64,000 nt of DNA, from positions 26,720-90,719 of the forward strand of contig JAGVJJ010000042.1 of NCBI GenBank assembly GCA_020051175.1, written 5' to 3'. Positions 13,840 through 63,657 of the stretch are shown piece by piece (within the stretch, counting starts at the first letter, position 1; each line of letters starts with the position of its first letter). The notes below the pieces were generated by a model. The model searched no databases, was not told where the DNA came from, and worked only from the letters and a program-made list of their open reading frames with translations. This DNA comes from Bacteroidia bacterium. GTDB lineage: Bacteria; Bacteroidota; Bacteroidia; 2-12-FULL-35-15. A program made the translations under genes and the position numbers.

Positions 13840-15495
13840 ATGCTTCAACATCTTTCTATACAGAACTATGCTTTAATTGATAAACTGGACGTTGACTTTT
13901 CAAACGGGCTGACTATCATTACAGGTGAAACGGGTGCCGGTAAATCCATTTTGCTAGGTGCTTTAGGATTGATTGCGGGCAACCGTGCCGATACACAGGC
14001 TTTACAGGATAAAGCAAAAAAATGCATTGTTGAAGCATCTTTTAATATTAAAGAATATGCATTAAAAGATTTTTTCTGGGCAAATGAGCTGGACTATGAA
14101 GTAGTGACAAGCATCCGCAGGGAAATAACCCCTGAAGGTAAATCACGTGCCTTTATTAACGACACGCCAGTTACATTGGCTCAACTGAAAGGACTGGCAG
14201 AGCGGTTAGTAGACATTCACAGCCAGCACCAGACATTAACTATTAATGGCAGCGAGTTCCAGCTTTCAGTAGTAGATGCGTATGCTAGCCATGCAGATGC
14301 GCTGAATGAATATTCCACACAATACAAACAGTACAAAGTGCTTGAAAAAGCACTGAATGAGCTTGTAAACAAAGAGGCACAGGCAAAAAAAGATCTTGAC
14401 TATTTTCAGTTCCAGTTCAATGAACTGGAAGAGGCGGGCTTAAAGTCCGGTGAGCAGCAGGATATGGAACAGGAACTGGAAACACTGAACAATGCTGAAG
14501 ATATAAAGCTTAACCTTTCTAAAGCCGCTGCAGGTCTTAATGGCGGGGAACAAAACCTGATTTCGTCACTGAATGAAATAAAGGCCCTTCTTACGAACAT
14601 AGCCAAATTTAAACCTGAAATAAACGATCTGAGCACACGCCTTTCCAGCGCTTATATAGAGCTGAAAGACATCAGCAATGAGCTGGAAAGTATTGAGCAG
14701 GACATTGTTTATGATCCTAAACGTATTGAAACCCTGAATGAGCAGCTGGATGCCATTTATCGACTGCAACAGAAACACCAGGTAAAAACGGTGGAAGAAC
14801 TGATTGCGATTAAAGATGAGCTGAGCGGTAAGCTCCTTGAATTCAGCTCTCTTGAGCATGAAATTGAAAAAACAAAAAAAGAGCTGGATACGATTCAGAA
14901 ATCATTGGCAGCACTTGCCAAAAAGATTGCCGGCAACCGTAAAAAAGAGATCCCGAAAATAGAGAAAGAGATAGCCTCCCTTCTCTCCTCCTTATCCATG
15001 CCGAATGCACAGCTAAAAGTAGAACATACCGAAACAGGTATTTTAGGACCTCATGGAACGGACAAAGTAAACTTTCTTTTCTCTGCCAATAAAGGCAGCG
15101 ATTTTAAAGAGCTGAACAAAGTTGCTTCGGGCGGTGAATTATCCCGCCTGATGCTGAGTATTAAATCACTGATTGCACAACTCACTGCACTGCCAACCAT
15201 AATTTTTGATGAGATAGATACAGGTGTTTCCGGTGATGTGGCTGATAAGGTGGGCAGCATCATGAATGTTATGGCGAAAGCAATGCAGGTGATAACCATA
15301 ACGCACCTGCCACAAATTGCCAGCAAAGGCGGCTCGCATTTGTTTGTTTATAAGGAAGACAAAAACAACAAAACCTATAGCAATATAAAAAGGCTGAATG
15401 CGGATGAACGCGTGCAGGAAATAGCAAAAATGTTAAGCACAGGAACTCCTACAGCGGCAGCTATCAGCAATGCGAAGGAGTTGTTGAAGAACTGA
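13840..15495 (+). CDS. recN: DNA repair protein RecN
   Basis: The N-terminus MLQHLSIQNYALIDKLDVDFSNGLTIITGETGAGKSILLGAL carries the Walker A motif. A long coiled-coil middle follows, and the C-terminus has the SMC signature ASGGELSRLMLS plus Walker B IIFDEIDTGVSG. Confidence 0.95.
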   Translation: MLQHLSIQNYALIDKLDVDFSNGLTIITGETGAGKSILLGALGLIAGNRADTQALQDKAKKCIVEASFNIKEYALKDFFWANELDYEVVTSIRREITPEGKSRAFINDTPVTLAQLKGLAERLVDIHSQHQTLTINGSEFQLSVVDAYASHADALNEYSTQYKQYKVLEKALNELVNKEAQAKKDLDYFQFQFNELEEAGLKSGEQQDMEQELETLNNAEDIKLNLSKAAAGLNGGEQNLISSLNEIKALLTNIAKFKPEINDLSTRLSSAYIELKDISNELESIEQDIVYDPKRIETLNEQLDAIYRLQQKHQVKTVEELIAIKDELSGKLLEFSSLEHEIEKTKKELDTIQKSLAALAKKIAGNRKKEIPKIEKEIASLLSSLSMPNAQLKVEHTETGILGPHGTDKVNFLFSANKGSDFKELNKVASGGELSRLMLSIKSLIAQLTALPTIIFDEIDTGVSGDVADKVGSIMNVMAKAMQVITITHLPQIASKGGSHLFVYKEDKNNKTYSNIKRLNADERVQEIAKMLSTGTPTAAAISNAKELLKN

Positions 15496-15799
15496 TGTTA
15501 TCTGTTTTTTTTCCTACCTGTATCTTGAAAAGTTTGCAAAATGGCAACAGTTGAAAAGCGATCAGCTTCCGGTTCCATTGTTATACCATAACTACTTCCA
15601 TTTTTACACATAATTTGTTGGTAAAAAACAACAATTTACAGTTGGTTCTTCTGCAATAAACCCAATTTTGAGAAATTTTAGTTGCAAAAACTGCAAATTA
15701 ACCTACTGCCTGAAGATTCTCTAAAGTTTTTTTTGCACTTTCTAACTAAAAGAAGTTATCAACAGCAATTGTCAGTTTTCAAGGGTTGGTTTACCAGCC

Positions 15800-15807
15800 T
15801 AAATTTG
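15800..15807 (+). promoter_or_regulatory. Bacteroidota -7 promoter box TAAATTTG upstream of the HMGR operon
   Basis: Matches TAnnTTTG and lies 67 nt upstream of ATG 15874, inside a 378-nt ORF-free leader. Confidence 0.4.
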
Positions 15808-15873
15808 CATCGTAAATAATATTATATTGCATACAAAACCTAACGAAGAAAAAACTTATTAATACTTTAAAAT

Positions 15874-17154
15874 ATGGCATCATCATCGGACAAAGCAAGT
15901 AAAGCATTGCACATACTGGAAAGCTTTAACAGTGTAGAAGGTATTATTGAAAAAATTAAAAACCACACAACAATACCTTCTAAAAACGACAGGCTTCCTG
16001 TAGAACTGAATGCCTCTGAAGAAGGCACGAAAAAACGAATGGAATTCGTTGCAAACGAAACCGGCAAAACGATGGAATTCCTGACCGGGAAGAAAAAGTT
16101 TGAGGATTTTAAACAGTTGGAAGGCAATATTGAAAACTACATGGGTATGTCAATGATCCCAACCGGTATTATTGGCCCGGTAAGGGTTATCGGTTCAGCT
16201 GCCCAGGGCGATTTTTTTGTGCCACTTGCCACTTCTGAAGGTGCCCTGGTGGCTTCTTACCACAGGGGAGCAAAAGCGTGTTATCTTGCAGGTGGCGCTA
16301 CATCCATCTGTATTGTTGAAGGTGTTCAGCGAAGCCCGGTATTCAAGTTTACCAATATTGGTGAATTAGGCCTTTTCCTGGCCTGGGTTCTGCAACGCGT
16401 AGAAGAGTTCAAAAAAATAACTGAAAGCAGCAGCCGCTATGCCAAACTTACTGATCTGAAAGCGAACATAGAAGGCAATCACCTCATTTTAACTTTTGAG
16501 TACCATACCGGTGATGCATCCGGACAAAACATGGTGACCTTGTGTACTGATGCTATCTGTAAATATATAATTGAAAGCGCCCCTGTTAAGCCATTGTTCT
16601 GGTTCATTGAAGGCAATTACTCCAGCGACAAAAAAGCGACTGTACTTTCTTTTACCAATGTACGTGGTAAAAAAATAACAACAGAAGTAGTGCTTTCTGA
16701 AAAAATTGTAAATGAAGTTTTAAAAAGTACACCAGAAGCAATGGCAGAGTACTGGCGTTCTTCCACCATGGGAATTATTCAAAGTGGGGCGGTTGGTGCG
16801 CAGGGGCATTACGCAAATGGCTTAACAGCACTATTCATCGCAACCGGACAGGATGCCGCCTGCGTTGCCGAAGCAGCCACAGGAATAACACGTATGGAAT
16901 TGAATAAAGATGGTTCATTATATGCTTCTGTTACCCTTCCAAACCTTATTGTTGGGACGGTTGGTGGCGGCACATCATTACCCACACAAAAGGAGTGTTT
17001 GGAATTAATGGATTGTTACGGAGCGGGCAAATCAAGGAAATTTGCCGAAATATGTGGAGCGGTAGTGCTGGCAGGTGAATTATCCATCGCTGCGGCCCTT
17101 TCTGCAGGGCACTTTTCATCTGCACATAAAAAGTTTGGAAGGAAGAATACATAA
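15874..17154 (+). CDS. Hydroxymethylglutaryl-CoA reductase (catalytic domain only)
   Basis: ENYMGMSMIPTGIIGPVRV, VPLATSEGALVASYHRGAK, TGDASGQNMVT, GTVGGGT and a C-terminal H (GHFSSAHKK) are characteristic HMGR catalytic-domain motifs. Confidence 0.9.
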   Translation: MASSSDKASKALHILESFNSVEGIIEKIKNHTTIPSKNDRLPVELNASEEGTKKRMEFVANETGKTMEFLTGKKKFEDFKQLEGNIENYMGMSMIPTGIIGPVRVIGSAAQGDFFVPLATSEGALVASYHRGAKACYLAGGATSICIVEGVQRSPVFKFTNIGELGLFLAWVLQRVEEFKKITESSSRYAKLTDLKANIEGNHLILTFEYHTGDASGQNMVTLCTDAICKYIIESAPVKPLFWFIEGNYSSDKKATVLSFTNVRGKKITTEVVLSEKIVNEVLKSTPEAMAEYWRSSTMGIIQSGAVGAQGHYANGLTALFIATGQDAACVAEAATGITRMELNKDGSLYASVTLPNLIVGTVGGGTSLPTQKECLELMDCYGAGKSRKFAEICGAVVLAGELSIAAALSAGHFSSAHKKFGRKNT

Positions 17155-17203
17155 TGGGAAGTCAGAAGTTAGAAGATAAGAAGGTTAACTTAATTTTTTT
17201 ACT

Positions 17204-18172
17204 TTGAAAATAGTGCAACATAACGAGTTCAGCAAAACAGAAGAAAACAATGCTTCTTTTCTAAGGCGGCTCTATCTATATCAGAAAGAACGTTTCCCGG
17301 TTCTGGGGCACGGATTACTGGTAGCGTCCTTCAGCTTTTCCGCTATTGCCTACTCGCGCATTTGCAGAGGCGCTGAAGGTTTTGTGAACTGGCAAACCTA
17401 TCTTGTTGGCATATTCATTACCATCACGCTGTTTATGCTTGTACGGATTTTTGACGAGTTTAAGGATGCGGAAGATGATGCCCAATACAGAAAACACCTG
17501 CCAGTACCAAGAGGACTGATCAGCTTCAAAGAGCTAAAAATAATGGCCATTGTTATCATTGTGTTGCAGATTGCTGTCAACCTGCTGTTTTTTCCTAAAA
17601 TGCTATTGATATACATTGGTATCATCACGTACCTTTCTTTAATGGGTAAAGAGTTCTTTATAGCCGATTGGCTAAAAAAGCACCAGTTCTGGTACATTAC
17701 CTCGCACATGTTTATCATACCTCTGATTGACATCTATGCCAGCGGCCTCGACTGGTTAATTGAGGGTGCAGATGCGCCAAAAGGATTATTATTTTTCTTT
17801 GCTGTATCTTACATGAACGGTATAGTGCTTGAAATAGGCAGAAAAATACGCACACCTGAAAGTGAAGCAAGAGGAGTACTGACGTATACATCCATGTTAG
17901 GAGTAACCCATGCCATATTGTTGTGGATAGGAGTCCTTTTTGTTACGCTATGCCTGGGCATTGCAGCATCACATTACGCGGGTTATGGCTCAACAGCCCT
18001 CTGGGTGCTAGGTTCCATCTTTTTTATCTGTATGATTCCGGCACTTCTGTTCCTTAAAAATAAAACAGAAAAATTATCCAAAGCTTTGGAGCTTTCTTCC
18101 GCATTATGGACAATTTCCATGTACCTGTCTTTAGGCGGGATCCCTATGATACAAAAATTATTTTTTCATTAA
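17204..18172 (+). CDS. UbiA-family integral-membrane prenyltransferase
   Basis: About 8-9 TM segments and an Asp-rich motif FDEFKDAEDDAQYR after TM2 (UbiA-type D..KD...D). No in-frame ATG near the 5' end; candidate starts are TTG 17204 or GTG 17213 (in-frame stop at 17186). Confidence 0.75.
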   Translation: MKIVQHNEFSKTEENNASFLRRLYLYQKERFPVLGHGLLVASFSFSAIAYSRICRGAEGFVNWQTYLVGIFITITLFMLVRIFDEFKDAEDDAQYRKHLPVPRGLISFKELKIMAIVIIVLQIAVNLLFFPKMLLIYIGIITYLSLMGKEFFIADWLKKHQFWYITSHMFIIPLIDIYASGLDWLIEGADAPKGLLFFFAVSYMNGIVLEIGRKIRTPESEARGVLTYTSMLGVTHAILLWIGVLFVTLCLGIAASHYAGYGSTALWVLGSIFFICMIPALLFLKNKTEKLSKALELSSALWTISMYLSLGGIPMIQKLFFH

Positions 18173-20787
18173 TGAAATATATAAGTCATACACAGGGCGA
18201 AATAGCTCTTGAATATACTATCGGTGGAAAAGCCAGGAACTTGTACAGATTGAAGGAAATAGGGCTTTCAGTGCCGGAATGGATTGTTATTCCACAGGAG
18301 GAACTGAGCCAGATGGTTCCGATGGAAATACAGGCAGCACCCTATTCGCAAATAGCGGCTTATATTGATAATTTGTCCATTGCAGATACATTTATAAAAG
18401 ACATAATTACACACTTTGGCGACTCGCTCTTTTTTGCTGTACGCTCATCAGCTATAGACGAAGATGGAAGCGACTTTTCTTTTGCCGGTCAGTTTGAATC
18501 GCATTTGTTTGTTGCCAAAGAACAGCTTGCCGATTCCATTAAAAAAGTATGGAAATCAGCGTTTTCAGAGCGCGTTTACCAATACAGGCAGAACAACAAG
18601 CTGGATCATAAATTTGGTATTGCAGTTATTATTCAGAAGATGATCAATGCAGAGGTTGCGGGTGTGGCCTTTGGAGCTAACCCTGCTAACGGTGACAGGA
18701 AAGCAAAAGTAATCAGTGCCGTTTACGGTATTGGTGAAGGACTTGTATCAGGCGAGCTGGACTCCGATAATTTTATTCTGAAAGACGGAACTGTAACTGC
18801 CCAACTGGCAAATAAAACGCATAAGATAATGCTTGATTCCAATTCCAGCGGTGGGACAAAGAAAGCAGCCGTGCCTCCCGAAAAGCAAGTATTACCTTCC
18901 CTTCAAAATCAACAACTGCTGGAAATTGCATCGATACTGGATACATGTTATAGGGAATATGGTAAAGCTCAGGACATGGAGTTTGCAGTGGCAAATGATA
19001 AAATTTATTTGTTGCAATCACGCCCTGTTACCAACCTGCATAAAATCGCAGATACAAACGGAGATTACATATTATGGGACAACAGCAACATCATTGAATC
19101 TTATCCAGGTGTCACCACTCCCCTCACCTTTTCATTCATCAGTAAATCCTATGAAGGGGCATATAAGCTATTCTGCGGTTTTATGGGAGTGGATCAAAAA
19201 GTAATACAACAAAATGAACGGGTATTCGCAAATACGCTTGGGTTGATTAACGGACGTGTATATTATAACCTGAAAACCTGGTACCATATGCTTGCTATGT
19301 TGCCCGGCTACAGCATCAACGCTCGCTTTATGGAAAAGATGATGGGTGTAAAAGAACGGTTTGACATTCCTGAAAGCTACCGTCTTTCAAAAGGCGCTGC
19401 CTGGTGGAGCATTGTAAAAATGGGGATAAAAATGTATGGCCGGTTTCTTTCGCTTCCCCGAAAAAGAGCTGAGTTCATGCAGGTTTTAAACACAACAATT
19501 GCTCATTATAAAAGCATTAATTTTGAAGAAAAGAATGCAAATGAGTTAATGCAGCTATACCTTGAGTTTGAAAAAACTTTACTGAACGAATGGAAAGCTC
19601 CGCTGCTCAACGATTTCTTCGCAATGATTTGGTTTGGGATGCTTCAGAAACAATGCGAAAAATTTGCCATCAGCAAAAACCCCAACATACACAACGATTT
19701 GCTGTGCGGCAGCAGTGATATTATTTCCGTACAGCCTGTACACCGTACCATAGCTATTGCTACGGCTGTTTCTTCCGACAAAGAATTAAAGGAGCTGTTT
19801 GCCTCCAACAATGAAACTGGTATATGGAAGCTGTTAGCAAACAACAATAAAAATAATTTTGCCGCTTTAAAAAAAGAAATAGACAGATACATTGTTGATT
19901 TTGGTGAGCGCTGCATTGGTGAGTTAAAACTTGAATCCATTTCCTATACCCAGGATCCAACAAGATTTGTAAAAATTGTAAAGTCGTACGTTGATTCCGG
20001 AATAACCTCAGAAAAAACATCTGGCAAAATAGAGGAAGAATTGCGCAGAAATGCGGAACATGAATTAAACACCGCATTAAAAAACAATTTCATAAAAAAA
20101 TGGCGCTTAAAGCGCACATTAAAAAATGCACGGGAACTTGTAAGTTCGCGTGAAAACCTTCGTTATGAACGTACCCGCGCATTTGGGATTGTAAGAGAAA
20201 TATTCTCGCATATGGGAAAAAGATTTTATGCAGAAGGAATCATAGAGCATTCGCGTGATATTTTTTATTTGACAAAGGAAGAAATATTTTCCTTTATCGA
20301 AGGAACATCCGTTACCCAAAACGTAAAAGCATTGATTGCTCTCCGTAAAAAAGAATTTGAGTCCTATCAACAGCAACTGCCTCCTTCCGAGCGTTTTGCC
20401 AGCTACGGCCCTGTTTACCATGCAAATGACTTTTTCAGTATAAGCCGGGTTGAAAAAATTGAGGGCGATTTAAAAGGCATTGGTTGCTGCCCCGGCCGGG
20501 TAAAAGGAAGGGTTAGAGTAATCCTGAATCCGAATGAAGCCAGCTCTCTTGATGGGGACATACTCGTAACTTCGAGTACCGATCCAGGTTGGGTGACTTT
20601 GTTCCCTAGTGCTTCAGCAATTATTGTAGAGCGTGGCAGCTTGCTCAGCCATTCAGCAATTGTTTCGAGGGAAATGGGAAAACCCTGTATAGTAAGTGTT
20701 ACAGGGCTATTAAAAACATTGAAAACAGGTTATGAAATTGAGATGGATGGCAGTACCGGAGAGATCAAAATATTAAACAAGGCCTGA
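18172..20787 (+). CDS. PEP-utilising (PEP synthase/PPDK-like) phosphotransferase with rifampicin-phosphotransferase-like domain order
   Basis: ATG 18172 overlaps the upstream stop (TAATG). N-terminal PPDK_N/ATP-grasp: GGKARNLYRLKEIGLSVPEWIVIP, AVRSSAIDEDG..SFAGQ, MEFAV...IYLLQSRPVT. A middle region of about 450 aa has no motif I recognise. C-terminal swivel His domain: ILVTSSTDPGWVTLFPSASAIIVERGSLLSHSAIVSREMGKPCIV. Confidence 0.85.
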   Translation: MKYISHTQGEIALEYTIGGKARNLYRLKEIGLSVPEWIVIPQEELSQMVPMEIQAAPYSQIAAYIDNLSIADTFIKDIITHFGDSLFFAVRSSAIDEDGSDFSFAGQFESHLFVAKEQLADSIKKVWKSAFSERVYQYRQNNKLDHKFGIAVIIQKMINAEVAGVAFGANPANGDRKAKVISAVYGIGEGLVSGELDSDNFILKDGTVTAQLANKTHKIMLDSNSSGGTKKAAVPPEKQVLPSLQNQQLLEIASILDTCYREYGKAQDMEFAVANDKIYLLQSRPVTNLHKIADTNGDYILWDNSNIIESYPGVTTPLTFSFISKSYEGAYKLFCGFMGVDQKVIQQNERVFANTLGLINGRVYYNLKTWYHMLAMLPGYSINARFMEKMMGVKERFDIPESYRLSKGAAWWSIVKMGIKMYGRFLSLPRKRAEFMQVLNTTIAHYKSINFEEKNANELMQLYLEFEKTLLNEWKAPLLNDFFAMIWFGMLQKQCEKFAISKNPNIHNDLLCGSSDIISVQPVHRTIAIATAVSSDKELKELFASNNETGIWKLLANNNKNNFAALKKEIDRYIVDFGERCIGELKLESISYTQDPTRFVKIVKSYVDSGITSEKTSGKIEEELRRNAEHELNTALKNNFIKKWRLKRTLKNARELVSSRENLRYERTRAFGIVREIFSHMGKRFYAEGIIEHSRDIFYLTKEEIFSFIEGTSVTQNVKALIALRKKEFESYQQQLPPSERFASYGPVYHANDFFSISRVEKIEGDLKGIGCCPGRVKGRVRVILNPNEASSLDGDILVTSSTDPGWVTLFPSASAIIVERGSLLSHSAIVSREMGKPCIVSVTGLLKTLKTGYEIEMDGSTGEIKILNKA

Positions 20788-20818
20788 TTGGCGCATAAAT
20801 TAGCATCAGAAAATAATT

Positions 20819-21910
20819 ATGGCTAAACAACTAACAGAAAAAGTATCTTTTGACTTTATACGCTATGCGAATTGCTGGGAAGACGCGGACATTCTGATAA
20901 AAGGACTGAACCCTTCTCCGGGAAGCAAAATACTATCCATTGGTTCAGCGGGTGACAACAGTTTTTCCTTACTTACTACTAATCCTCAGGTAGTAGTGGC
21001 AGTTGATGTAAATAAAATTCAACTTTACCTTATTGAATTAAAAAAGATATGCATTCAACATCTGACTTATGAAGAATTATTGAATTTCCTGGGTTTCAGG
21101 CCATCTGATAAACGAGAAGTAACATTTAATGGGCTAAAGCAGTACTTAAACAAAGAAACCAGGGAATATTGGGAAAAGAACATTCAACAACTACGGGAGG
21201 GAATTATATCACAAGGGAAGTTTGAGAAATATTTTCAGCTTTTCAGCGGTAAGATTCTGCCATGGATACATTCATCTGCAACTACAGAGAAGCTTTTGAG
21301 TACCAAAAGTGAAGCAGAGCAAAAAGCTTTTTACGATACCACCTGGAACTCCTGGAGATGGAGGCTTTTATTTAAAATATTTTTTAGTAAGTATGTAATG
21401 GGCAAATACGGACGCGACCCGGAATTCCTGAGAGAAGTGAAAGTTCCCGTTGGGGAACATATTTTCCAGAAAGCAGGTAGACATTTGCAAAGCACAGGTG
21501 CACAAAACAACTTTATTCTGCGTTATAACCTTACCGGCACCTTCGGCAATCTGTTGCCACATTACCTGCAACCAGAAAACTATGAAAAAGTAAAGCTCAA
21601 CCTTAATAGGTTGGAAATACTGGAAGGTTATGCTGAAGATGCAATAAAAAAGCATGGAAGCTTTCACAGCATGAACCTTTCCAATATTTTTGAATATATG
21701 GACAGCACTTTATTTTCGAAAACCGCCAAACAGCTTGTTGACGCTACTGAACCAGGAGGCCGACTTGCATATTGGAACCTGATGGTACCCCGAAGGATAT
21801 CGTCTGTTTTCAAGGAACAAACGATATACGATGAAAACCTTTCAAAACAGCTTTCAGCAATTGACAAAGGATTTTTTTATAACCAGTTTATTATCGATCA
21901 GGTAAAATGA
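20819..21910 (+). CDS. DUF3419 / BtaA-like S-adenosylmethionine 3-amino-3-carboxypropyl transferase family protein
   Basis: FIRYANCWEDADILIKGLNPSPGSKILSIGSAGDNSFSLL...VVAVDVNKIQLYLIELK matches the DUF3419 N-terminal pattern (WED...SaG.N...vD.N..Q). Recalled from memory. Confidence 0.75.
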   Translation: MAKQLTEKVSFDFIRYANCWEDADILIKGLNPSPGSKILSIGSAGDNSFSLLTTNPQVVVAVDVNKIQLYLIELKKICIQHLTYEELLNFLGFRPSDKREVTFNGLKQYLNKETREYWEKNIQQLREGIISQGKFEKYFQLFSGKILPWIHSSATTEKLLSTKSEAEQKAFYDTTWNSWRWRLLFKIFFSKYVMGKYGRDPEFLREVKVPVGEHIFQKAGRHLQSTGAQNNFILRYNLTGTFGNLLPHYLQPENYEKVKLNLNRLEILEGYAEDAIKKHGSFHSMNLSNIFEYMDSTLFSKTAKQLVDATEPGGRLAYWNLMVPRRISSVFKEQTIYDENLSKQLSAIDKGFFYNQFIIDQVK

Positions 21911-22578
21911 CAAAAACAGATCTCTTAAATACTGCAATACTTGCAGGCGCATTCCTTTTGCTGTTTGGCTTTGCCGAAATCCTGTATCATTATTTCAAAG
22001 CAAAGGTAGAAATCACACGTAAAATTGTCCATTTTGGAACAGGTATACTCACACTGTTGTTTCCATTGATGCTTGACGATCACTGGCTGGTGCTTCTACT
22101 CTGCGGAAGCTTCGCGGTAATATTAATAATTAGCATACGGTATAATTTTCTGAAATCAGTAAATGCCATTGATCGTGAATCAGTCGGAAGCATTGCCTAT
22201 CCTGTGTCGGTTTACGGCTGCTATCTTGCATTCAATTATTTTGATCACCAGTATGCTTATTTTTATATTCCCATTTTAATTTTAGCCATTTGCGACCCTG
22301 TTGCAGCACTGGCTGGTAAAAAATGGCCTTTAGGAAAATATAAAATAGGAAACAGTAGCAAAACCCTGATGGGTTCAGGAATGTTTTTTCTATCGGCATT
22401 TATTGTAATTGTTGTGCTCTCACTCATGGAACACAATATGACAAGAATTGTTATGCGGGGGCTTATTATTGCCTTGTTTTCAACGGTTTCAGAAGCTGTA
22501 AGCGGGCGTGGCTATGACAACATTACAATACCGGTTTCTGTGCTTGCAAGCCTGATTGTTATTGACCAACTTACATAA
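21907..22578 (+). CDS. SEC59/DGK1/VTE5-family (CTP-dependent polyprenol/phytol kinase or cytidylyltransferase-like) membrane protein
   Basis: ATGA overlap with the upstream stop. 6-7 TM segments. TRKIVHFGTG and CDPVAALAGKKWPLGKY...SKTLMGSGMFF resemble the phytol/dolichol kinase and CdsA-type motifs. Confidence 0.65.
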   Translation: MTKTDLLNTAILAGAFLLLFGFAEILYHYFKAKVEITRKIVHFGTGILTLLFPLMLDDHWLVLLLCGSFAVILIISIRYNFLKSVNAIDRESVGSIAYPVSVYGCYLAFNYFDHQYAYFYIPILILAICDPVAALAGKKWPLGKYKIGNSSKTLMGSGMFFLSAFIVIVVLSLMEHNMTRIVMRGLIIALFSTVSEAVSGRGYDNITIPVSVLASLIVIDQLT

Positions 22579-22584
22579 ATTGTT

Positions 22585-23589
22585 ATGCAGATCATTCAGA
22601 CACTTCCCGGTGACGAAAATTTTCATTTATTCGAAAGCATTCCCAAACTGCTCTATCCGGCAAATAGCATTCGACACCTGCAATCGGACAGCATCAATAA
22701 TGAATTTCTTACTGGTTGCTTTGTACTATTGACAAATGGTATACCACAGGCAAGAGCTGCACTTTATCACAACCCGCAGCTTTCGTATAAAGGATTGCAA
22801 AGCGCATGCATAGGGAATTATGAATCTACTGACAATAATGAAGCGGCAGAACAACTACTGAAATCAATTTTTAGTAAGGCTAAAAACAATGGTGCCCGAT
22901 TCATAATAGGGCCTATGAATGGCTCCACCTGGGACAACTACAGATTCAGCACACATCATAATTTTGCCAACTTCTTATTAGAGCCCTATCATCATCTTTA
23001 TTATAATAAACAGTTTTCTGACGCAGGCTTCTTACCTATTTCTGAATACACCTCGAGTCTGGAGACAGAATTAGAAAACAATCATCCAGATGTACTTAAA
23101 CGTGAAACAGAGCTATTAAACGAAGGTGTAATTATCAGGAATATTGACATGAGTGATTATGAGGGAGAACTAAAAAAGTTATACCCAGTAATCAGCAGTT
23201 CTTTCAAAAGCAATTTTCTATACACTCCAATAAAATGGGAAACTTTCCTTAAAAAATACCTGGAAGCAGCAAAAATCATTAACCCTGAATACGTGCTGAT
23301 AGCGGAAAACATACAAGGTGAAATTATCGGTTTTTTATTTGCTTACGATGATTTATTCAGCAAAAGCGAAAAAAGACTTGTGGTAAAAACACTGGCGCGT
23401 AATGAATCCAGGCAATGGGCAGGACTTGGGCAGGTACTTGCAAACCGGATAGTAAATAGTGCTAAAACAAAAGGCTATCAATCGCTAGTACACGCATTTA
23501 TCATCGAACAAGGAACTTCGAGGGGGGCATCCGAAAAATTTCACGGCAAAGTTTATAAAAACTACGTTCTTTACGGAAGGGAACTTTAA
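22585..23589 (+). CDS. GNAT-fold acyltransferase-like protein (334 aa)
   Basis: The C-terminal part IIGFLFAYDD...VVKTLAR....QWAGLGQVLANRIVNSAKTKGYQSLVHAFI fits GNAT motif A (R/Q-x-x-G-x-G/A). I do not recognise the N-terminal half. Confidence 0.55.
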   Translation: MQIIQTLPGDENFHLFESIPKLLYPANSIRHLQSDSINNEFLTGCFVLLTNGIPQARAALYHNPQLSYKGLQSACIGNYESTDNNEAAEQLLKSIFSKAKNNGARFIIGPMNGSTWDNYRFSTHHNFANFLLEPYHHLYYNKQFSDAGFLPISEYTSSLETELENNHPDVLKRETELLNEGVIIRNIDMSDYEGELKKLYPVISSSFKSNFLYTPIKWETFLKKYLEAAKIINPEYVLIAENIQGEIIGFLFAYDDLFSKSEKRLVVKTLARNESRQWAGLGQVLANRIVNSAKTKGYQSLVHAFIIEQGTSRGASEKFHGKVYKNYVLYGREL

Positions 23590-23631
23590 AAATATTCTTT
23601 TTAAATAGCAACTGAAAAACAGCGAACCAGG

Positions 23632-25164
23632 ATGGAAACGTTTAATATTGTTGATTTATTCTTTGAGTCGGCTAAAAAATATCCCGATAAAACAGCAATC
23701 ATATACAGGGAAAATGAAATCAGCTTTTCCGAGTTTAAAGCCCAGGTGCAGGATACTTCTACCCATTTTGCAAATAAAGGAATTAATCGTGGCGACAGGG
23801 TATTGATTTTTGTTCCGATGAGTATTGATTTATACCGTATCGTGCTGGCATTATTTAACATTGGAGCAACAGCGGTTTTCCTGGATGAATGGGTGAGTAA
23901 AAAAAGAATGGAAGAATGCTGCAAAGTAGCACAATGTAAAGCCTTTATAGGGATATTTAAAGCACGTATTTTTTCTTTTTTTTCATCGGAATTAAGAAAA
24001 ATACCTATAAAGCTAAGCGCAAACTACTCCAGAACTCCGGATAAGATGGTCGGGACTGTAAAAACACAGCTATCTGATACAGCCCTTATAACTTTTACCA
24101 CCGGCAGTACCGGAACTCCTAAGGCAGCCAAAAGAACACATGGCTTTTTGAAAGAGCAGTTCAATGCATTGCTTGAAAAGATTGATCCTCAGCCGGATGA
24201 TGTTGACATGCCTGTTTTGCCGATTGTTCTGCTTATTAATCTGGGAGCAGGCTGTACATCAGTTATTGCGGAGTTTAAAGCCAGCAAACCAGATGAAATG
24301 AACACAGCTAAAATCATTCAACAAATACAGACATATAAAGTTACGCGATTGGTCTCTTCGCCCTTTTTTATTAAACGAATCGCCAAACACAGTATTGCAA
24401 CGGGCACTTCATTTCCACTACTAAAAAAGATATTTACCGGTGGCGCACCTGTATTTCCTGCTGAAGCCGAACTTTATACGAAAGCTTTTCCACAAACAAA
24501 AACTGAAATTGTCTATGGTTCCACAGAGGCAGAACCAATAAGCTCGATTGAGGCAAAGGAACTGGTAAAAGAAAAAGAAAATATTTTACAGAAAGGTTTG
24601 AAAGTCGGGCAACCTTACCGTAAAGCAAATGTAAAAATCATAGAGATCAGAGAGGACATTATTTCCTGTACCGCTGAAGAGGAATTAAGCAGACTTGTTC
24701 TGCCTGAAGGAAAAATTGGAGAAATTATTGTAAGCGGACCGCATGTACTGCGTGAGTACTTTAATAATGAGAAGGCATTAAAACAAAATAAAATATTTAT
24801 AAATGAACAGTGCTGGCACCGTACTGGCGACAGCGGTTATGTAGATTCAGAAGGAATCTTGTATTTAACAGGACGCTGCAACACACTTATATACAGGAAT
24901 AATTTAACCATAGCCCCATTCATCTACGAAAATTACTTTCAAACGCTTGAGAATGTTGAAATGGGAACACTTTTACAATTGAACAACAAGCTTACAGCAC
25001 TTGTTGAGGTTAAAAACGAAAATGCAAAAACTGAGGTCAGGGAAAAAATAAATACGCTGGATATACTACCTGATGCAGTGGTATTCATCGAAAAAATTCC
25101 ACGTGACCCAAGACATAATTCCAAAATTGATTATGCAAAACTGAGTAGCCTGGTTTCAAAGTAA
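23632..25164 (+). CDS. Adenylate-forming enzyme (AMP-dependent synthetase/ligase; acyl-CoA-synthetase or OleC-like)
   Basis: Core motifs TFTTGSTGTPKAAKRTH (A3), YGSTEAEP (A5), HRTGDSGYVDSEGILYLTGRC (A7/A8) and IPRDPRHNSKIDY (A10 Lys). Confidence 0.9.
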   Translation: METFNIVDLFFESAKKYPDKTAIIYRENEISFSEFKAQVQDTSTHFANKGINRGDRVLIFVPMSIDLYRIVLALFNIGATAVFLDEWVSKKRMEECCKVAQCKAFIGIFKARIFSFFSSELRKIPIKLSANYSRTPDKMVGTVKTQLSDTALITFTTGSTGTPKAAKRTHGFLKEQFNALLEKIDPQPDDVDMPVLPIVLLINLGAGCTSVIAEFKASKPDEMNTAKIIQQIQTYKVTRLVSSPFFIKRIAKHSIATGTSFPLLKKIFTGGAPVFPAEAELYTKAFPQTKTEIVYGSTEAEPISSIEAKELVKEKENILQKGLKVGQPYRKANVKIIEIREDIISCTAEEELSRLVLPEGKIGEIIVSGPHVLREYFNNEKALKQNKIFINEQCWHRTGDSGYVDSEGILYLTGRCNTLIYRNNLTIAPFIYENYFQTLENVEMGTLLQLNNKLTALVEVKNENAKTEVREKINTLDILPDAVVFIEKIPRDPRHNSKIDYAKLSSLVSK

Positions 25165-27772: not shown

Positions 27773-28474
27773 TTAAATCATATTTAATCTGCGCAACAAA
27801 TCTTTTTTAAATTGTCCGGCAATAGGCAAAGGGTGTTTTCCGGTATATGCAGAATTTTCCTCAATATTATCGATGTGGTTTAAAGCTACCAGGTAAGAGC
27901 GGTGCAAACGGAAAAATTTATCAGCGGGCAGCTTTTCTTCAATATTTTTCAATGTAATATGAACAGTATAGCGTTTTTCAGTAGTATAAATGTTAACGTA
28001 ATCGCCAATTGCCTGTACATACTGGATACTGTCGATCTTTATTTTAATAAGGATACCGCCTGAGCGAACAAAAATGTAATCCTTACTGCGCGCATCGTTT
28101 ACAACCTGTCTTGGTTCTTTTTTCTCAAACAGATCCTTTGCTTTGTTAACGGCAACCATGAATCTGGGCAGAGATAATGGTTTGATAAGATAGTCCACAA
28201 CATTCAGGTCAAAAGCTTCTGCGGCATATTCCTTCTTTGAAGTAATCAAGATAATAATTGGAGGCTTCTCCAGATTTTTTATCAACTCCAGGCCAGTCAT
28301 TCCAGGCATTTCAACATCCAGAAAAATGAGATCCACCGGCTCTTTTTTCAGATAATTAAATGCTTCCACAGGTGTTTCACACTCCTGTACAAGATTTAAA
28401 AATTCAAACTGTGCAATCAGGGGCTTGATGGCCGCACGGGCAATTTTGCTGTCGTCAACTACTATACAATTCAT
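27773..28474 (-). CDS. LytTR-family response regulator (REC + LytTR DNA-binding domain)
   Basis: ATG 28474 gives MNCIVVDDSKIARAA.. The REC domain has DLIFLDVEMPGMTGLE and ILITSKKEYA. The C-terminal LytTR domain has IFVRSGG..IKIKIDSIQYVQAIGDYVNIYT...FFRLHRSYLVALNHI. Confidence 0.9.
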   Translation of the reverse strand: MNCIVVDDSKIARAAIKPLIAQFEFLNLVQECETPVEAFNYLKKEPVDLIFLDVEMPGMTGLELIKNLEKPPIIILITSKKEYAAEAFDLNVVDYLIKPLSLPRFMVAVNKAKDLFEKKEPRQVVNDARSKDYIFVRSGGILIKIKIDSIQYVQAIGDYVNIYTTEKRYTVHITLKNIEEKLPADKFFRLHRSYLVALNHIDNIEENSAYTGKHPLPIAGQFKKDLLRRLNMI

Positions 28475-28609
28475 GGTTTTTATATTATTTATTAATATTG
28501 AACTTGATTTAGTACGATTAAAAATGTATGATAAAAAAAGATGCCAGAAGAAACAATTCAAGCCTTGTGATAAAAAAAAGTATCGCTAAAAGAAATCTAA
28601 TTTTTTTGT

Positions 28610-30691
28610 TTATTTGATAAACTCCCTTTTTATCTCATCACATCTTCTTTTACAGGCCTCATCAATTATATAAAATAACTCTCTTAATTTTTCAGGATGC
28701 TGTTGTTCAGCCGCATATTCTTCAATAGTCCTTGCAATAAATTCATATTCTTTTTCAATTCCCATTAATGCAAAGCACGGAACAATGGAATGAGCTGCTC
28801 TTTGAATCATCTTCCAGTCCCAGATTTCAATCCCGGTTCTTATAGCGCTAGTCAATTGTGGAATTTCTTCCAGGTATGCAGATACGATTTCGGTAATGGC
28901 TCTCGGATCCCCATTTGTTATTTCAACCAGATACTCGGAATAATAAGCTTGATTTATTGCCTGCGAAGACTGTTCCAAGCCTTTAACAATTCCAGCTTCA
29001 TTGGATTTCCGGTTTATGAATTTTAAAATTTTAGAATACAGGATCTTTTCGTCAACCGGCTTTGAAATATAATCGTTCATTCCAAGTGTTTTGCACTTTT
29101 TTGCATTCATTGTTGTAACATCTGCAGTAAGCGCGATTACCGGAATATCCAACTGCATTATTTTTCGAATATATTCAGTTGCTTCAATACCATTCATTTC
29201 AGGCATTTGCAAATCCATCAATACTACATCATAAGAGTTATCATACAGTTTTTCGATTGCAATCCTGCCGTTATCAGCAATGTCTATAACACATTTGTAC
29301 TTTTCAAGTAGGGTTTTAATCAGCAGCTGGTTTGGACGAATATCCTCTACAAGGAGTATTCGTGAGCCGGTAATAGCACCTTCCGCCAAAACAGGGCCTT
29401 CAACAGCTTCAGGTTTATGCTCGATTTTCTCCTGTGTTTTTTTGAAGCCAAGAAGAAAACTAAATGTAGAACCTTTGTTTATTTCACTGCTCACTGAAAT
29501 CCTTCCACCTTGCAGCTCAACCAATTGCTTCACAATAGCCAATCCTAAGCCTGTTCCACCCGAAACATTTTTTCCGGTATTTCCTGCCTGCTGAAATTTC
29601 TCAAAAATATTTTTCTGGTCGCTTTCTGGAATTCCAACACCAGTATCGCTGATATCAAAGCGGATAGTCACCTGTTCAGCGTCATCTTTAATCTTACTAA
29701 TACTTACTTTAATGTGTCCTTTGGATGTAAATTTTACAGCATTTCCAACAAGGTTCAGCATAATCTGGTTCAAACGTACAGGATCACCTACCAACACATC
29801 CGGTATTGAATGATCGTATTCCGTGATCAGCTCTAAATTTTGTTCGGAAATTTTTGTTTCAAAAAGCTGAAGCACCTCAGAAATGGATGAATACAAATAG
29901 AAAGGTGACGATTCAAATGTCATTTTTCCTGATTCAACCTTAGCTAGGTCAAGGATATCATTAATAAGTACAATCAAGATATCACCTGATACTTTTATGG
30001 TGGTCAGGTATTCCTTTTGTTTTTCTGTTAAAGGAGTTTCAAGCAATACTTTCGTAAAACCAATAATGGCGTTCATTGGTGTACGGATTTCATGGCTCAT
30101 ATTCGATAAAAAATGTGATTTTGCTTTCGCAGCCTCTTCAGCAATTTTCGCAGCATGTTCCGCATTGTTTTTAGCCTTAATCAACTCATTTTGAGATCGT
30201 TCCAGCTTTTCAAGTGTTTCTTCCAATATTATAGTACGGCTTCTTACCCTCTTTTCCAAAGCAGCGTTCAGCTCATTCATTTCATTCCTGTGCTTTGCAT
30301 TTGCAATTGCATAGCGGATAGAACGTTCCATAACCTGGCTTGAGATTGTTCCCTTTACAAGATAATCTGCTGCACCGGCACTCATTGCCTGCTTATCTAT
30401 TTCAAAGTTGTTTTCTCCGGTAAGAATAATCAGTGGAGCTTCACATCCTAAGTCCAGAGCTTTTTTGATAAGCTCAAGGCCCGTTCTTCCCCCCAATTTA
30501 TAATCAACAAGGTAAACATCGTGTGCTTTTTCGGAAATAGCTTTCAGGCCGGAATCAAATGATGGCCTCCAGTCTATTGTATATTTGTGGTGTACAACAC
30601 CTCTTAAGATAATGTCCCTAACAATTAAGAAATCCTCCTCATCGTCATCAATCATCAGAATCTTAATTTCATTTTGTATCATGTCCTCCAT
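28610..30691 (-). CDS. Hybrid sensor histidine kinase / response regulator (REC-coiled coil-HisKA-HATPase-REC-Hpt), cytoplasmic
   Basis: N-terminal REC (ILMIDDDEEDF, DVYLVDYKLGGRTGLE); H-box FLSNMSHEIRTPMNAIIGF; N/G boxes NLVGNAVKFT, DTGVGIP, GGTGLGLAI; second REC (DVVLMDLQMPEMNG); C-terminal Hpt-like AAHSIVPCFALMG. No TM segment. Confidence 0.9.
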   Translation of the reverse strand: MEDMIQNEIKILMIDDDEEDFLIVRDIILRGVVHHKYTIDWRPSFDSGLKAISEKAHDVYLVDYKLGGRTGLELIKKALDLGCEAPLIILTGENNFEIDKQAMSAGAADYLVKGTISSQVMERSIRYAIANAKHRNEMNELNAALEKRVRSRTIILEETLEKLERSQNELIKAKNNAEHAAKIAEEAAKAKSHFLSNMSHEIRTPMNAIIGFTKVLLETPLTEKQKEYLTTIKVSGDILIVLINDILDLAKVESGKMTFESSPFYLYSSISEVLQLFETKISEQNLELITEYDHSIPDVLVGDPVRLNQIMLNLVGNAVKFTSKGHIKVSISKIKDDAEQVTIRFDISDTGVGIPESDQKNIFEKFQQAGNTGKNVSGGTGLGLAIVKQLVELQGGRISVSSEINKGSTFSFLLGFKKTQEKIEHKPEAVEGPVLAEGAITGSRILLVEDIRPNQLLIKTLLEKYKCVIDIADNGRIAIEKLYDNSYDVVLMDLQMPEMNGIEATEYIRKIMQLDIPVIALTADVTTMNAKKCKTLGMNDYISKPVDEKILYSKILKFINRKSNEAGIVKGLEQSSQAINQAYYSEYLVEITNGDPRAITEIVSAYLEEIPQLTSAIRTGIEIWDWKMIQRAAHSIVPCFALMGIEKEYEFIARTIEEYAAEQQHPEKLRELFYIIDEACKRRCDEIKREFIK

Positions 30692-52246: not shown

Positions 52247-53116
52247 ATGAAAAAACCATTACTTATCCTTACATGTCTTATGTTTGGTGCAGCTAGTGTA
52301 AACGCTCAGTTTACTGGCTTTACCGGATTTTCCGGTTTCTCAGGGTTCAGTGGCAGCAGTGGCGCTACCAGTTCCAGCGGAACAAGTGGCACAAGCGGGA
52401 CAAGTGGTACCAGTGGAACAAGCGGAACAAGCGGAACAAGTGGTACAAGTGGCACCAGTGGGTTTTCTGGCTTTTCAGGTTTTTCCGGGTTCTCAGGTTT
52501 TTCTGGCTTTTCGGGAACTTCAGGTACTTCAGGCACTTCAGGTACTTCAGGCACCAGTGGTACAAGCGGTACAAGCGGATTCTCCGGCTTTACAGGTTTC
52601 ACTGGTTTTACCGGCTTTACAGGTTTCAGCGGTTCATCCGGCAGTTCAGGAACATCTGGTACAAGTGGGTTTACAGGATTTAGCGGTTCGAGTGGCTCTA
52701 CAGGTTCAACAGGGTCAAGCGGATTTACAGGGTTTACCGGCTCAACGGGCTCATCCGGATTTACAGGATTTACAGGAAGCACAGGTTCTACCGGCTTTAC
52801 CGGTTCCAGCGGAATGACTGGTACTTCCGGGATGACAGGTAATACAGGCACTGCTATCATGGATGTAAAAGAAGCCAGTAACTTTGTGGTGGTGTTCCCG
52901 AATCCCGCATCTAATTTCATAAATTTCAAATACCTTACAGAGGCAAGCCAGATCGAAATTTATGATATAACCGGACGTTTAGCTGGCACTTATTCCGTAA
53001 CCAGTGAAACAGTGAATATTTCCACAACATCATTTGAACCGGGAACGTATTTTTATACTGTTTTAAATAATAAAAAGTCCTACATCGGAAAGGGTAAAAT
53101 ACTGATTATCAAATAA
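52247..53116 (+). CDS. T9SS-secreted collagen-like protein: ~58 G-(F/T/S)-(S/T) triplets + C-terminal sorting domain
   Basis: Signal peptide [21 protein letters not shown]. Residues 24-198 are almost pure GFS/GFT/GTS/GSS/GST triplets. C-terminal T9SS domain: [14 protein letters not shown]...[10 protein letters not shown]. Confidence 0.85.
52316..52840 (+). repeat. Coding 9-nt (triplet-of-codons) tandem repeat tract of the collagen-like gene
   Basis: Runs of ggcttttca/ggtttctca (GFS), ggaacaagc/ggtacaagt (GTS) and ggctttaca (GFT). It generates spurious long ORFs in other frames and on the opposite strand. Confidence 0.9.
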
Positions 53117-53133
53117 CTCCCCCCCCAATTACT

Positions 53134-53168
53134 AAAAGGCATTAATGGTAGACATTAATGCCTTTTTT
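53134..53168 (+). terminator. Rho-independent terminator
   Basis: AAAA-ggcattaatg-gtaga-cattaatgcc-TTTTTT: a perfect 10-bp stem (53138-53147 / 53153-53162) 18 nt after the stop. Confidence 0.9.
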
Positions 53169-53271
53169 GTTTCATCTTATCCTCAAAACCATTTATTTCC
53201 TTATTGCTGCCGAATACTTGACAAAAGCAGCTGATATTCGTCATGTTCAGCATACATATTCTGGCTTTAGC

Positions 53272-53279
53272 TAATTTTG
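53272..53279 (+). promoter_or_regulatory. Bacteroidota -7 promoter box TAATTTTG
   Basis: Perfect TAnnTTTG ending 19 nt before ATG 53298. Confidence 0.45.
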
Positions 53280-53297
53280 TGTGTATAAACTGCCCCA

Positions 53298-54149: not shown

Positions 54150-54376
54150 CTGGTTTAGTATTGGTTTTTAGGCCGTCTTATTGGTTTATATCTCCAAATT
54201 TCAAAAATCGTTCGTTGGTGTAGATGTGATGACCATGAGAACTTTCTCCCCACTGATAGTTTACGATTTCAAAAATACCGTATAAAAAAAAGAATTTATT
54301 GTCTTCGGAGATATAAATCTTAAACTGATTTAAGTTTATGAATTGGGTTCCGCTGTGGTAACAATTTGAGAATTTT

Positions 54377-56251
<1,875 letters not shown>

Positions 56252-56287
56252 ACTATTAATGCTTTTTCTTAATATTTTATTCTAAGA

Positions 56288-60475: not shown

Positions 60476-60528
60476 ACCTTTAAATATATTTAGTACATCA
60501 AAAAATTGGAATCATTCTGATAATTAAA

Positions 60529-63657
<3,129 letters not shown>

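Follow-up and report, generated by a model that had tools for sequence, protein, structure and literature searches.

A conserved seven-gene cluster headed by an HMG-CoA reductase in Bacteroidota: a candidate pathway for an isoprenoid polar lipid

Introduction

What is the function of a 3-hydroxy-3-methylglutaryl-coenzyme A (HMG-CoA) reductase that heads a row of seven tightly packed genes, none of the others belonging to the mevalonate pathway? The question is raised by a stretch of 64,000 nucleotides (nt) from a Bacteroidia bacterium (assembly GCA_020051175.1, contig JAGVJJ010000042.1), referred to here in its whole length as the window. At 15874–25164 of its plus strand lie genes for a class I HMG-CoA reductase (HMGR, gene 1), a divergent intramembrane prenyltransferase of the UbiA superfamily (gene 2), an Rph/PigC-type phosphotransferase (gene 3), a BtaA-like transferase that depends on S-adenosylmethionine (SAM) (gene 4), a polytopic membrane protein distantly related to CTP_transf_1 (gene 5), a tandem-GNAT acyltransferase (gene 6), and an acyl-CoA/acyl-AMP ligase of the ANL type (gene 7). 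An earlier note on this DNA proposed these seven families, and all seven assignments have been upheld, by Pfam for genes 1–4 and 7 and by deeper tests for genes 5 and 6.

We find that the seven genes form a single biosynthetic operon, inherited as a whole, rather than a housekeeping gene that happens to have unrelated neighbours. Enzymes of familiar kinds are combined here in a new way, and cultured organisms are among the carriers. Our suggestion for the product of the operon is a tentative one, which we judge to fall a little short of probable: a polar lipid bound to the membrane, whose isoprenoid chain derives from mevalonate and whose head group is of the amino-acid type.

Gene order and conservation of the cluster

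The sequence bears out the layout that the earlier note had described, with its coordinates, overlaps, gaps, 378-nt leader and convergent neighbour. Genes 2 and 3 share 1 nt (TAATG, read at 18170–18174), genes 4 and 5 overlap by 4 nt (21907–21910), and the remaining intergenic gaps within the cluster are 49, 31, 6, and 42 nt. A convergent gene for a 252-residue protein ends at 25169, 4 nt past gene 7. The overlaps and the gaps of 6–49 nt support the operon-like packing that had been claimed.

The gene order was then surveyed in other genomes. One genome per GTDB species was scanned with the reductase, the best 80 of 126 matches being taken, followed by tblastn with all seven proteins. The full seven genes were found in the same order in at least 32 GTDB species representatives from four Bacteroidota orders, including one metagenome-assembled genome (MAG) labelled Verrucomicrobia. 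The carriers include Dyadobacter, Sphingobacterium, Parapedobacter, Rhabdobacter, Fluviicola/Crocinitomicaceae, Cryomorphaceae, Saprospiraceae, Cytophagales, and Bacteroidia MAGs. Nine more genome loci are consistent with the cluster and are cut by contig ends. In Dyadobacter fermentans the cluster is present with overlapping stop and start codons, and every recovered Dyadobacter and Sphingobacterium locus that extends downstream of the reductase carries it. A look-up of gene 6 homologues also found the seven genes in Saprospiraceae MAGs and a split, extended version in Fluviicola. In Fluviicola riflensis (L004:5966–8151) the cluster is split by an insertion with a HipA/HipB-type toxin-antitoxin pair and a small PsbP-like gene.

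Metagenomes were scanned with the most distant gene 2 sequences as seeds, and contigs of at least 9 kb were considered. Nineteen such contigs, from a second, Verrucomicrobia-like lineage, have the seven genes in the canonical order. In this lineage the gene 5 protein is extended at its C-terminus by a further membrane domain of about 240 residues.

The same order thus recurs in more than 50 independent loci, and the arrangement is therefore far from chance. Furthermore, the pairwise distances of the seven proteins correlate with r = 0.71–0.94, the reductase being the most conserved and the GNAT the least. Because the gene order is conserved and the proteins diverge together, the cluster is a real, co-inherited functional unit. 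The earlier note had placed the reductase within a dedicated unit, and the conserved order supports this; the chance, which it had raised, that the order might not be conserved in relatives is decisively removed by the co-localisation found across genomes.

According to that note, no characterised product is known for this gene combination. Our search of the literature, which covered DUF3419, BtaA in Bacteroidetes, the combination of the families, and mevalonate together with Dyadobacter, likewise turned up no published description of the cluster. Database entries for its proteins have unspecific names, for example "UbiA family prenyltransferase" or "hypothetical protein".

The HMG-CoA reductase

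Gene 1 (15874–17154, plus strand, 426 residues) matches the HMG-CoA_red family PF00368 at full length (E = 2.5e-114, profile positions 3–368 of 368). It scores 336.9 bits against TIGR00533, under the equivalog cutoff of 441.8, and its top match among solved structures is an archaeal HMGR, 6hr7, at 281 bits (human HMGR, 213 bits). From these comparisons it is assigned to a divergent subclade of class I (NADPH-type) HMGR. In alignments with the human and archaeal enzymes, the equivalents of human E559, D690/K691/K692, N755, D767, and H866 are kept, and the same catalytic and cis-loop positions are conserved in every cluster-linked reductase. Judged by its residues, gene 1 is catalytically intact, and the conversion of HMG-CoA to mevalonate is its predicted activity.

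Two contacts with the carboxylate of HMG differ from those of human HMGR: Glu stands in place of S684, and Ser, directly preceded by an Arg, in place of K735. An altered substrate specificity was considered and rejected. Solitary bacterial HMGRs also have Glu at 684 and a residue other than Lys at 735, so the changes are not diagnostic. In a variant also offered by the earlier note, the thioester to be reduced by the HMGR homologue would come from the ligase. This variant has no specific support, since the reductase keeps all the canonical catalytic and cis-loop residues.

Another HMGR-like protein, also of 426 residues, is encoded in a Flavobacteriales MAG (L054:10001–11281) and in a MAG labelled Chryseobacterium gleum (L056:3179–4459). 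Its catalytic Glu is replaced by Gln (STSQGS), and its cis-loop reads EKM in place of DKK. It may be an inactive or repurposed paralogue.

Is the reductase dedicated to the cluster? The earlier note stated that the window contains no further mevalonate-pathway gene, and this is borne out by Pfam annotation. Among the window's open reading frames (ORFs) of at least 150 residues outside those already assigned, no gene of the mevalonate or methylerythritol phosphate (MEP) pathway was found besides gene 1. Nor do HMG-CoA synthase, mevalonate kinase, the decarboxylase, or IDI occur among the recurrent neighbours in the 51 genome loci or in the metagenome loci. The identity of the cluster as a mevalonate operon was rejected, as the other pathway genes are unlinked to the reductase.

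The reductase could still be an ordinary housekeeping HMGR that heads the operon of an independent six-gene pathway, the linkage being one of co-regulation. We regard this as possible, if doubtful. Verrucomicrobia use the MEP route. In the Verrucomicrobia-like lineage the reductase still stands first in the cluster, between unrelated flanks and with the other mevalonate genes not nearby, which argues against a housekeeping role, as does the co-divergence of the reductase with the other six cluster proteins. A housekeeping role is favoured by the retention of all canonical residues in the cluster-linked HMGRs, and by their grouping with the solitary HMGRs of Neolewinella, Bernardetiaceae, and others, which lie amid unrelated housekeeping genes. 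In a neighbour-joining tree these solitary enzymes branch outside the single clade formed by the cluster-linked reductases.

The need for one HMGR in every mevalonate-only genome points the same way: Flavobacteriaceae make isoprenoids through mevalonate only (PMC4026382). The one other HMGR-like type seen in Flavobacteriales, described above, is without the catalytic Glu, and the cluster-type HMGR of Chryseobacterium may be the functional one there; the cluster-type enzyme may well be the working reductase in these bacteria. In addition, a second HMGR was seen in no cluster-bearing genome in the scan, which, at the best 80 of 126 matches, was not exhaustive. Among the 120 matches listed, most of them nameless, no Runella-type second HMGR is named for Dyadobacter or Sphingobacterium; the names are Runella, Emticicia, and Spirosomataceae.

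Within Spirosomataceae and Saprospiraceae, some genomes lack the cluster and have an HMGR from another clade, 42–45% identical to the cluster type. This distribution, found in Runella and in some Saprospiraceae and Cytophagales MAGs, counts against a housekeeping role to the extent that it reflects a paralogue, and it fits displacement equally well. One Runella-type reductase, unlinked to the cluster (L089:6987–9966), lies between genes for a LigB-family dioxygenase and an enoyl-CoA hydratase, not among mevalonate genes.

The membrane proteins: genes 2 and 5

Genes 2 and 5 encode polytopic membrane proteins and give the cluster a membrane theme. Gene 2 (17204–18172, plus strand, 322 residues, with a possible alternative start ATG at 17213) passes the UbiA family PF01040 narrowly, at 39 bits against a gathering score of 34.2. 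The first Asp-rich motif is recognisable in the invariant D84, D88, D92, R96, and P102-R103-G104. The region of the second motif is atypical, with an invariant D176 and N205-G...E210-x-G-R-K rather than DxxxD. When the family profile was compared with the PDB, DGGGP synthase 6m31 (E = 0.006) and chlorophyll synthase (E = 0.02) were found. An AlphaFold2 model of the protein (pLDDT 81.9) gave the DGGGPS structures 7bpu and 6m31 as top Foldseek matches, then ApUbiA and AfUbiA, and UBIAD1 was also matched, with TM scores of 0.5–0.6. The model thus shows a UbiA fold. By profile and by predicted fold, the nearest solved relative is archaeal DGGGP synthase, and all of these matches are weak. The closest enzymes, DGGGPS and chlorophyll synthase, are O-prenylating, which supports an O-prenylation step.

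At three loci (L165, L090, and L093) the reductase and the UbiA-like gene stand next to each other, and the genes after them are unrelated, which suggests that the pair is the core of the cluster. The pairing loosely echoes the animal HMGCR–UBIAD1 partnership, and 8djk is among the fold matches of gene 2.

Gene 5 (21907–22578, plus strand, 223 residues) has no significant Pfam match in the window, and 8 of 28 orthologues match PF01148, the best with E = 2e-6. Its invariant motifs are D130-P-x-A-A-x-x-G-K, K152-T-x-x-G-S, and E196-A...D204-N205-x-x-x-P, which resemble those of VTE5 phytol kinase and dolichol kinase. The CdsA signature, K-R-x4-K-D...H-G-G-x-x-D-R-x-D, is absent from gene 5 and present in an accessory CdsA-like gene of some loci. 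Because the signature is absent, gene 5 fits a kinase-like rather than a cytidylyltransferase role. An hhalign comparison of gene 5 with the CdsA-like family was weak (probability 3.7%) and aligned a shared D..A...G...KT..G motif. The family profile found nothing in the PDB, and the family is large, with 3009 representative clusters at E ≤ 1e-3 in an exhaustive search. We assign gene 5, from its motifs and orthologues, as a putative distant member of the CTP_transf_1 (CdsA/dolichol-kinase) superfamily that would resemble the dolichol, phytol, and diacylglycerol kinases.

Gene fusions bear on the partners of gene 5. The CdsA-like and gene 5 domains are joined in single polypeptides in P0367, P0434, P0486, P0494, and P0499. 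By neighbourhood and by gene fusion, gene 5 is functionally tied to the CdsA-like cytidylyltransferase. The gene 5 domain is also found with a C-terminal membrane domain of about 240 residues that has no Pfam match, in P0488, P0498, P0505, and P0510 and in the Verrucomicrobia-like cluster at L071:15614–16936.

The remaining enzyme families: genes 3, 4, 6, and 7

Gene 3 (18172–20787, plus strand, 871 residues; the ORF runs from 18106) has PPDK_N (E = 7e-61) and PEP-utilizers (E = 3e-22) domains, with an Rph_4th domain in the precomputed table. It matches Listeria Rph, 5fbs, in two segments with 253 bits, and the His-domain motif LLSHSAIVSRE aligns with the Rph swivel domain. A C-terminal phosphoenolpyruvate (PEP)/pyruvate-binding domain was not detected in the protein. 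Its scores lie below the equivalog cutoffs of all the NCBIfam models, with 775.8 of 883 bits for NF004881, 312 of 999 for Rph, and 333 of 1300 for PigC; the PigC and RedH models give about 310–330 bits. This ATP-grasp and swivel-His architecture is that predicted for an ATP-driven phospho-His phosphotransferase acting on a bulky hydroxyl substrate.

Gene 4 (20819–21910, plus strand, 363 residues) matches PF11899 (DUF3419) over profile positions 6–382 of 385 (E = 6e-66), and neither a solved structure nor an NCBIfam model was matched. BtaA, of the same family, transfers the 3-amino-3-carboxypropyl group from SAM to a lipid hydroxyl.

Genes 6 and 7 form an acylation pair. Gene 6 (22585–23589, plus strand, 334 residues) falls below the threshold of the Pfam GNAT family (E = 0.0024, 18.6 bits against 20.7). 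Its AlphaFold2 model (pLDDT 92.8, pTM 0.87) has tandem GNATs as its top Foldseek matches, namely glucosamine N-acetyltransferase 5kgh, MAB_4324, and mycothiol synthase MshD, with E = 1e-13 to 1e-11 and TM scores of about 0.6. A Q-W-A-G-L-G stretch is conserved in the C-terminal half, where W278 is invariant and G280, L281, and G282 are nearly so. We read it as the Q-x-x-G-x-G motif predicted to bind CoA, and the model as one of two GNAT folds. Gene 7 (23632–25164, plus strand, 510 residues) matches AMP-binding PF00501 with E = 2e-44. It scores 380.9 bits, under the cutoff of 478, against NF006754 (PRK09274, a fatty acid CoA ligase family) and about 204 bits against OleC models, and its matches to solved structures are generic ANL ones. 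Gene 7 is classed, on these scores, as an adenylate-forming (ANL) ligase of the PRK09274 type.

Variants and accessory genes

Accessory genes are added to the cluster in other loci. Directly after the reductase, 16 loci have a gene for a CdsA-like cytidylyltransferase in which the catalytic signature is complete, and 13 loci have one for a CDP-alcohol phosphatidyltransferase (CDP-OH_P_transf) there as well. A protein of the SRPBCC lipid-binding type is encoded between genes 6 and 7 in 10 loci and in L006 (Botryobacter). A reduced variant, in Chryseobacterium-labelled MAGs and a Cyclobacteriaceae MAG, retains just the reductase, gene 5, and the CdsA-like gene, which the CDP-alcohol transferase may or may not accompany. 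The order at the Chryseobacterium-labelled loci L048–L050 (for example, L049:4902–12682) is a distant Rph-like gene, a gene for a 251-residue protein, a SAM methyltransferase, a fatty-acid desaturase, the reductase, the CdsA-like gene, and the gene 5 homologue. Taken with the fusions, the variants indicate a pathway for membrane lipids, in which a lipid alcohol would be phosphorylated by gene 5 and could afterwards be activated with CDP and furnished with a head group.

Could the product instead be a diffusible specialised metabolite, such as a prenylated signal, a pigment modifier, or an antibiotic? Natural-product pathways often contain Rph/PigC-type enzymes and ANL ligases, some of the Verrucomicrobia-like versions come with a cytochrome P450, and the distribution of the cluster within families is patchy. 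Genes for a LytTR regulator and a histidine kinase, described below, lie just downstream in the window and in a Saprospiraceae relative, which also speaks for such a metabolite. However, neither an exporter nor a nonribosomal peptide synthetase, polyketide synthase, or terpene cyclase is present in any variant, and the cluster contains no transporter. The accessory genes are those of classic phospholipid enzymes, and the presence of the cluster in every Dyadobacter and Sphingobacterium locus recovered with its downstream region also speaks against a metabolite of this kind. We consider it improbable.

Proposed pathway

We infer every substrate in the following scheme from the family memberships and the linkage of the genes, which alone are established. 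In the first step, the reductase would raise or dedicate mevalonate flux. Housekeeping enzymes encoded elsewhere would then make the prenyl diphosphate. Alternatively, gene 5, with CTP, and gene 3, with ATP and its His-swivel, would phosphorylate a prenol or lipid alcohol stepwise, in analogy to plant VTE5/VTE6. The UbiA-like enzyme would O-prenylate a hydroxyl or carboxyl acceptor, of the glycerol type or another. Next, the BtaA-like enzyme would move the 3-amino-3-carboxypropyl group from SAM onto a free hydroxyl. The ligase would make an acyl-CoA, with which the tandem GNAT would N-acylate the new amine. In variants with the CdsA-like enzyme and the CDP-alcohol phosphatidyltransferase, the same backbone could also be led to a phospholipid via a CDP-activated intermediate. 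From the chemistry of the families one can reasonably infer, as the putative product, an isoprenoid-bearing, N-acylated homoserine-type polar lipid.

Several observations weigh against this scheme. Membership in DUF3419 is no proof of aminocarboxypropyl transfer, as the fold is a methyltransferase fold. A BtaB-type methyltransferase is absent from the cluster of the window and from the conserved variants, and the sole variant with a methyltransferase, that of Chryseobacterium, is without gene 4. The likeness of gene 2 to DGGGPS is marginal (14% identity at the E value of 0.006 given above) and below the level of orthology, and UbiA-fold proteins also comprise terpene cyclases and phosphoribosyltransferases. 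Neither polyprenyl synthase, nor GGGPS, nor glycerol-1-phosphate (G1P) dehydrogenase is encoded in or adjoining any of the variants. In mevalonate-reliant Bacteroidota the cluster reductase may simply be the cell's only HMGR. Finally, four metagenomic contigs (L108, L115, L120, and L133) have the cluster without the reductase, and the three loci with the adjacent pair hold only HMGR and the UbiA-like gene; because of these two kinds of locus, the reductase is not strictly obligatory.

The same pair, as a minimal conserved core, can also be read in another way, in which mevalonate or another alcohol made by the reductase is a building block and not a step on the route to isopentenyl diphosphate. 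In one version the ligase makes mevalonyl-CoA or a hydroxyacyl-CoA, which the tandem GNAT passes to an amine; in the other, a thioester made by the ligase is reduced by HMGR. The fungal enzymes SidI and SidF of siderophore synthesis provide an analogy for the first version. The moderate similarity of the ligase to OleC, which acts on β-hydroxy acids, would fit a building block, as would the Verrucomicrobia-like lineage, which has the cluster with its own HMGR and no adjoining genes of the lower mevalonate pathway. However, the whole HMG-CoA catalytic set is kept, and nothing indicates a new substrate. Gene 6 has no match to the Pfam family of the siderophore transacylases. Furthermore, the UbiA-like, CdsA-like, and lipid-kinase-like membrane enzymes would be left unexplained. 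Use of the alcohol as a building block is, in our judgement, quite improbable.

To return to the isoprenoid polar lipid, a more specific form of it would be a new class of membrane lipid, made by many Bacteroidota and by a Verrucomicrobia-like lineage, with an isoprenoid linked as ether or ester by the DGGGPS-like UbiA enzyme, an N-acylated homoserine-type head, a CDP-dependent phospholipid branch in some taxa, and an HMGR of its own. We think it unlikely that all these features hold together.

Comparison with known systems

The cluster borrows one enzyme type from each of several known systems. Gene 4 belongs over its full length to the same Pfam family as BtaA of the BtaA/BtaB betaine-lipid system of Rhodobacter sphaeroides and rhizobia (BTA1 in algae). 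However, the cluster is without BtaB, and the neighbours of gene 4 encode isoprenoid-type and acylating enzymes, which the pathway to diacylglyceryltrimethylhomoserine does not have. Identity with the BtaA/BtaB system is ruled out by the absence of BtaB.

In the archaeal ether-lipid pathway, with GGGPS, DGGGPS, CarS, and CDP-alcohol transferases, the nearest relative of gene 2 is DGGGPS, and the variants with a cytidylyltransferase and a CDP-alcohol phosphatidyltransferase also recall it. The cluster differs in that neither GGGPS nor G1P dehydrogenase is near and in that the cytidylyltransferase is of the CdsA type (PF01148), not CarS. With the marginal similarity to DGGGPS, these differences led us to reject the identity. 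Homologues of GGGPS and DGGGPS of unknown role have been recorded in Bacteroidetes (PMC6431249). Gene 2 is probably not the "DGGGPS orthologue" of the papers on the FCB-group.

The salvage of phytol in plants and cyanobacteria by VTE5, VTE6, and VTE2/ChlG follows the same logic as a kinase-like gene 5, a phosphotransferase in gene 3, and a UbiA enzyme in gene 2. Here, the second kinase would be of the Rph His-swivel type, not VTE6/DUF92, and the homogentisate or chlorophyllide context is absent. Rph and the prodigiosin ligases PigC/RedH share with gene 3 the layout of ATP-grasp, Rph_4th, and swivel-His domains, likewise without a PEP/pyruvate domain. The central substrate-binding region of gene 3 is unaligned with Rph in phmmer, and the context is biosynthetic, not one of resistance. 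A role in rifampin resistance was rejected, given the NCBIfam scores under the cutoffs and this context.

The ebo operon comprises a UbiA-type EboC and five further genes and occurs in Bacteroidetes, cyanobacteria, and eustigmatophyte plastids, and in Dyadobacter too (PMC5133447). Like the present cluster, it is a widespread, long-uncharacterised operon around a divergent UbiA-family enzyme. Its partners are a sugar-phosphate cyclase, a TatD-like hydrolase, a TIM-barrel protein, and a phosphodiesterase, none of which is present in our cluster. The partner genes being entirely different, identity with ebo was rejected.

Leader and surroundings of the cluster

Upstream of the cluster lies recN (13840–15495; TIGR00634, E = 6e-141), and the leader between it and gene 1 has 378 nt (15496–15873, plus strand). 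A candidate −7 box of the Bacteroidetes type, TAAATTTG, was read in the leader at 15801–15808 on the plus strand; it fits TAnnTTTG, the −7 consensus of Bacteroidetes. An Rfam search of the leader gave no family at E ≤ 1, and a riboswitch or regulatory RNA there was rejected on the absence of a match. A scan for sigma-70 promoters and intrinsic terminators gave counts no higher than in shuffled sequence. In L002, whose cluster proteins are 93–100% identical to those of the window, a gene for a TPR and SpoIIE-phosphatase protein of 637 residues (L002:2807–4720) is inserted between recN and the reductase, which shows that the DNA before the operon varies. The GC content of the cluster, 0.38–0.43, is no different from that of the window, and recent horizontal acquisition was rejected.

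Just downstream of the cluster, at 27773–30691 on the minus strand of the window and at L007:13405–15907 in the Saprospiraceae relative, there are genes for a histidine kinase and a response regulator of the LytTR type. The pair may be a conserved regulatory neighbour of the cluster. By Pfam, the remaining long ORFs of the window are ordinary Bacteroidota genes, among them proteins with tails of the type IX secretion system (T9SS), glycoside hydrolases, and two-component systems. For two proteins of the window from outside the cluster, an exact-sequence look-up gave no record. Four successive genes at 52247–63657 encode proteins with collagen triple-helix repeats. Two of the large ones, of 624 and 1395 residues, also have Peptidase_S74 (endosialidase chaperone), the one of 1042 residues has Collagen only, and the fourth carries a T9SS sorting tail.

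Significance

The polar lipids of Bacteroidota are partly known, and the role of the archaeal-type prenyl-lipid homologues in the FCB-group has been left open (PMC6431249). Because Bacteroidetes carry such homologues of unknown function, the cluster is a relevant lead. It offers, as a unit of seven to ten genes in four Bacteroidota orders and in a second phylum-level lineage, a concrete candidate for a new lipid class, and its cultured carriers include Dyadobacter fermentans and several Sphingobacterium species. If the lipid is of the more specific kind described above, a bacterial pathway would mix archaeal-style prenyl-lipid chemistry with betaine-lipid chemistry. Hosts that use the MEP route would then have no mevalonate enzyme besides the reductase, which would feed the pathway directly; as an orphan mevalonate enzyme there, it would represent an unusual use of HMGR in itself.

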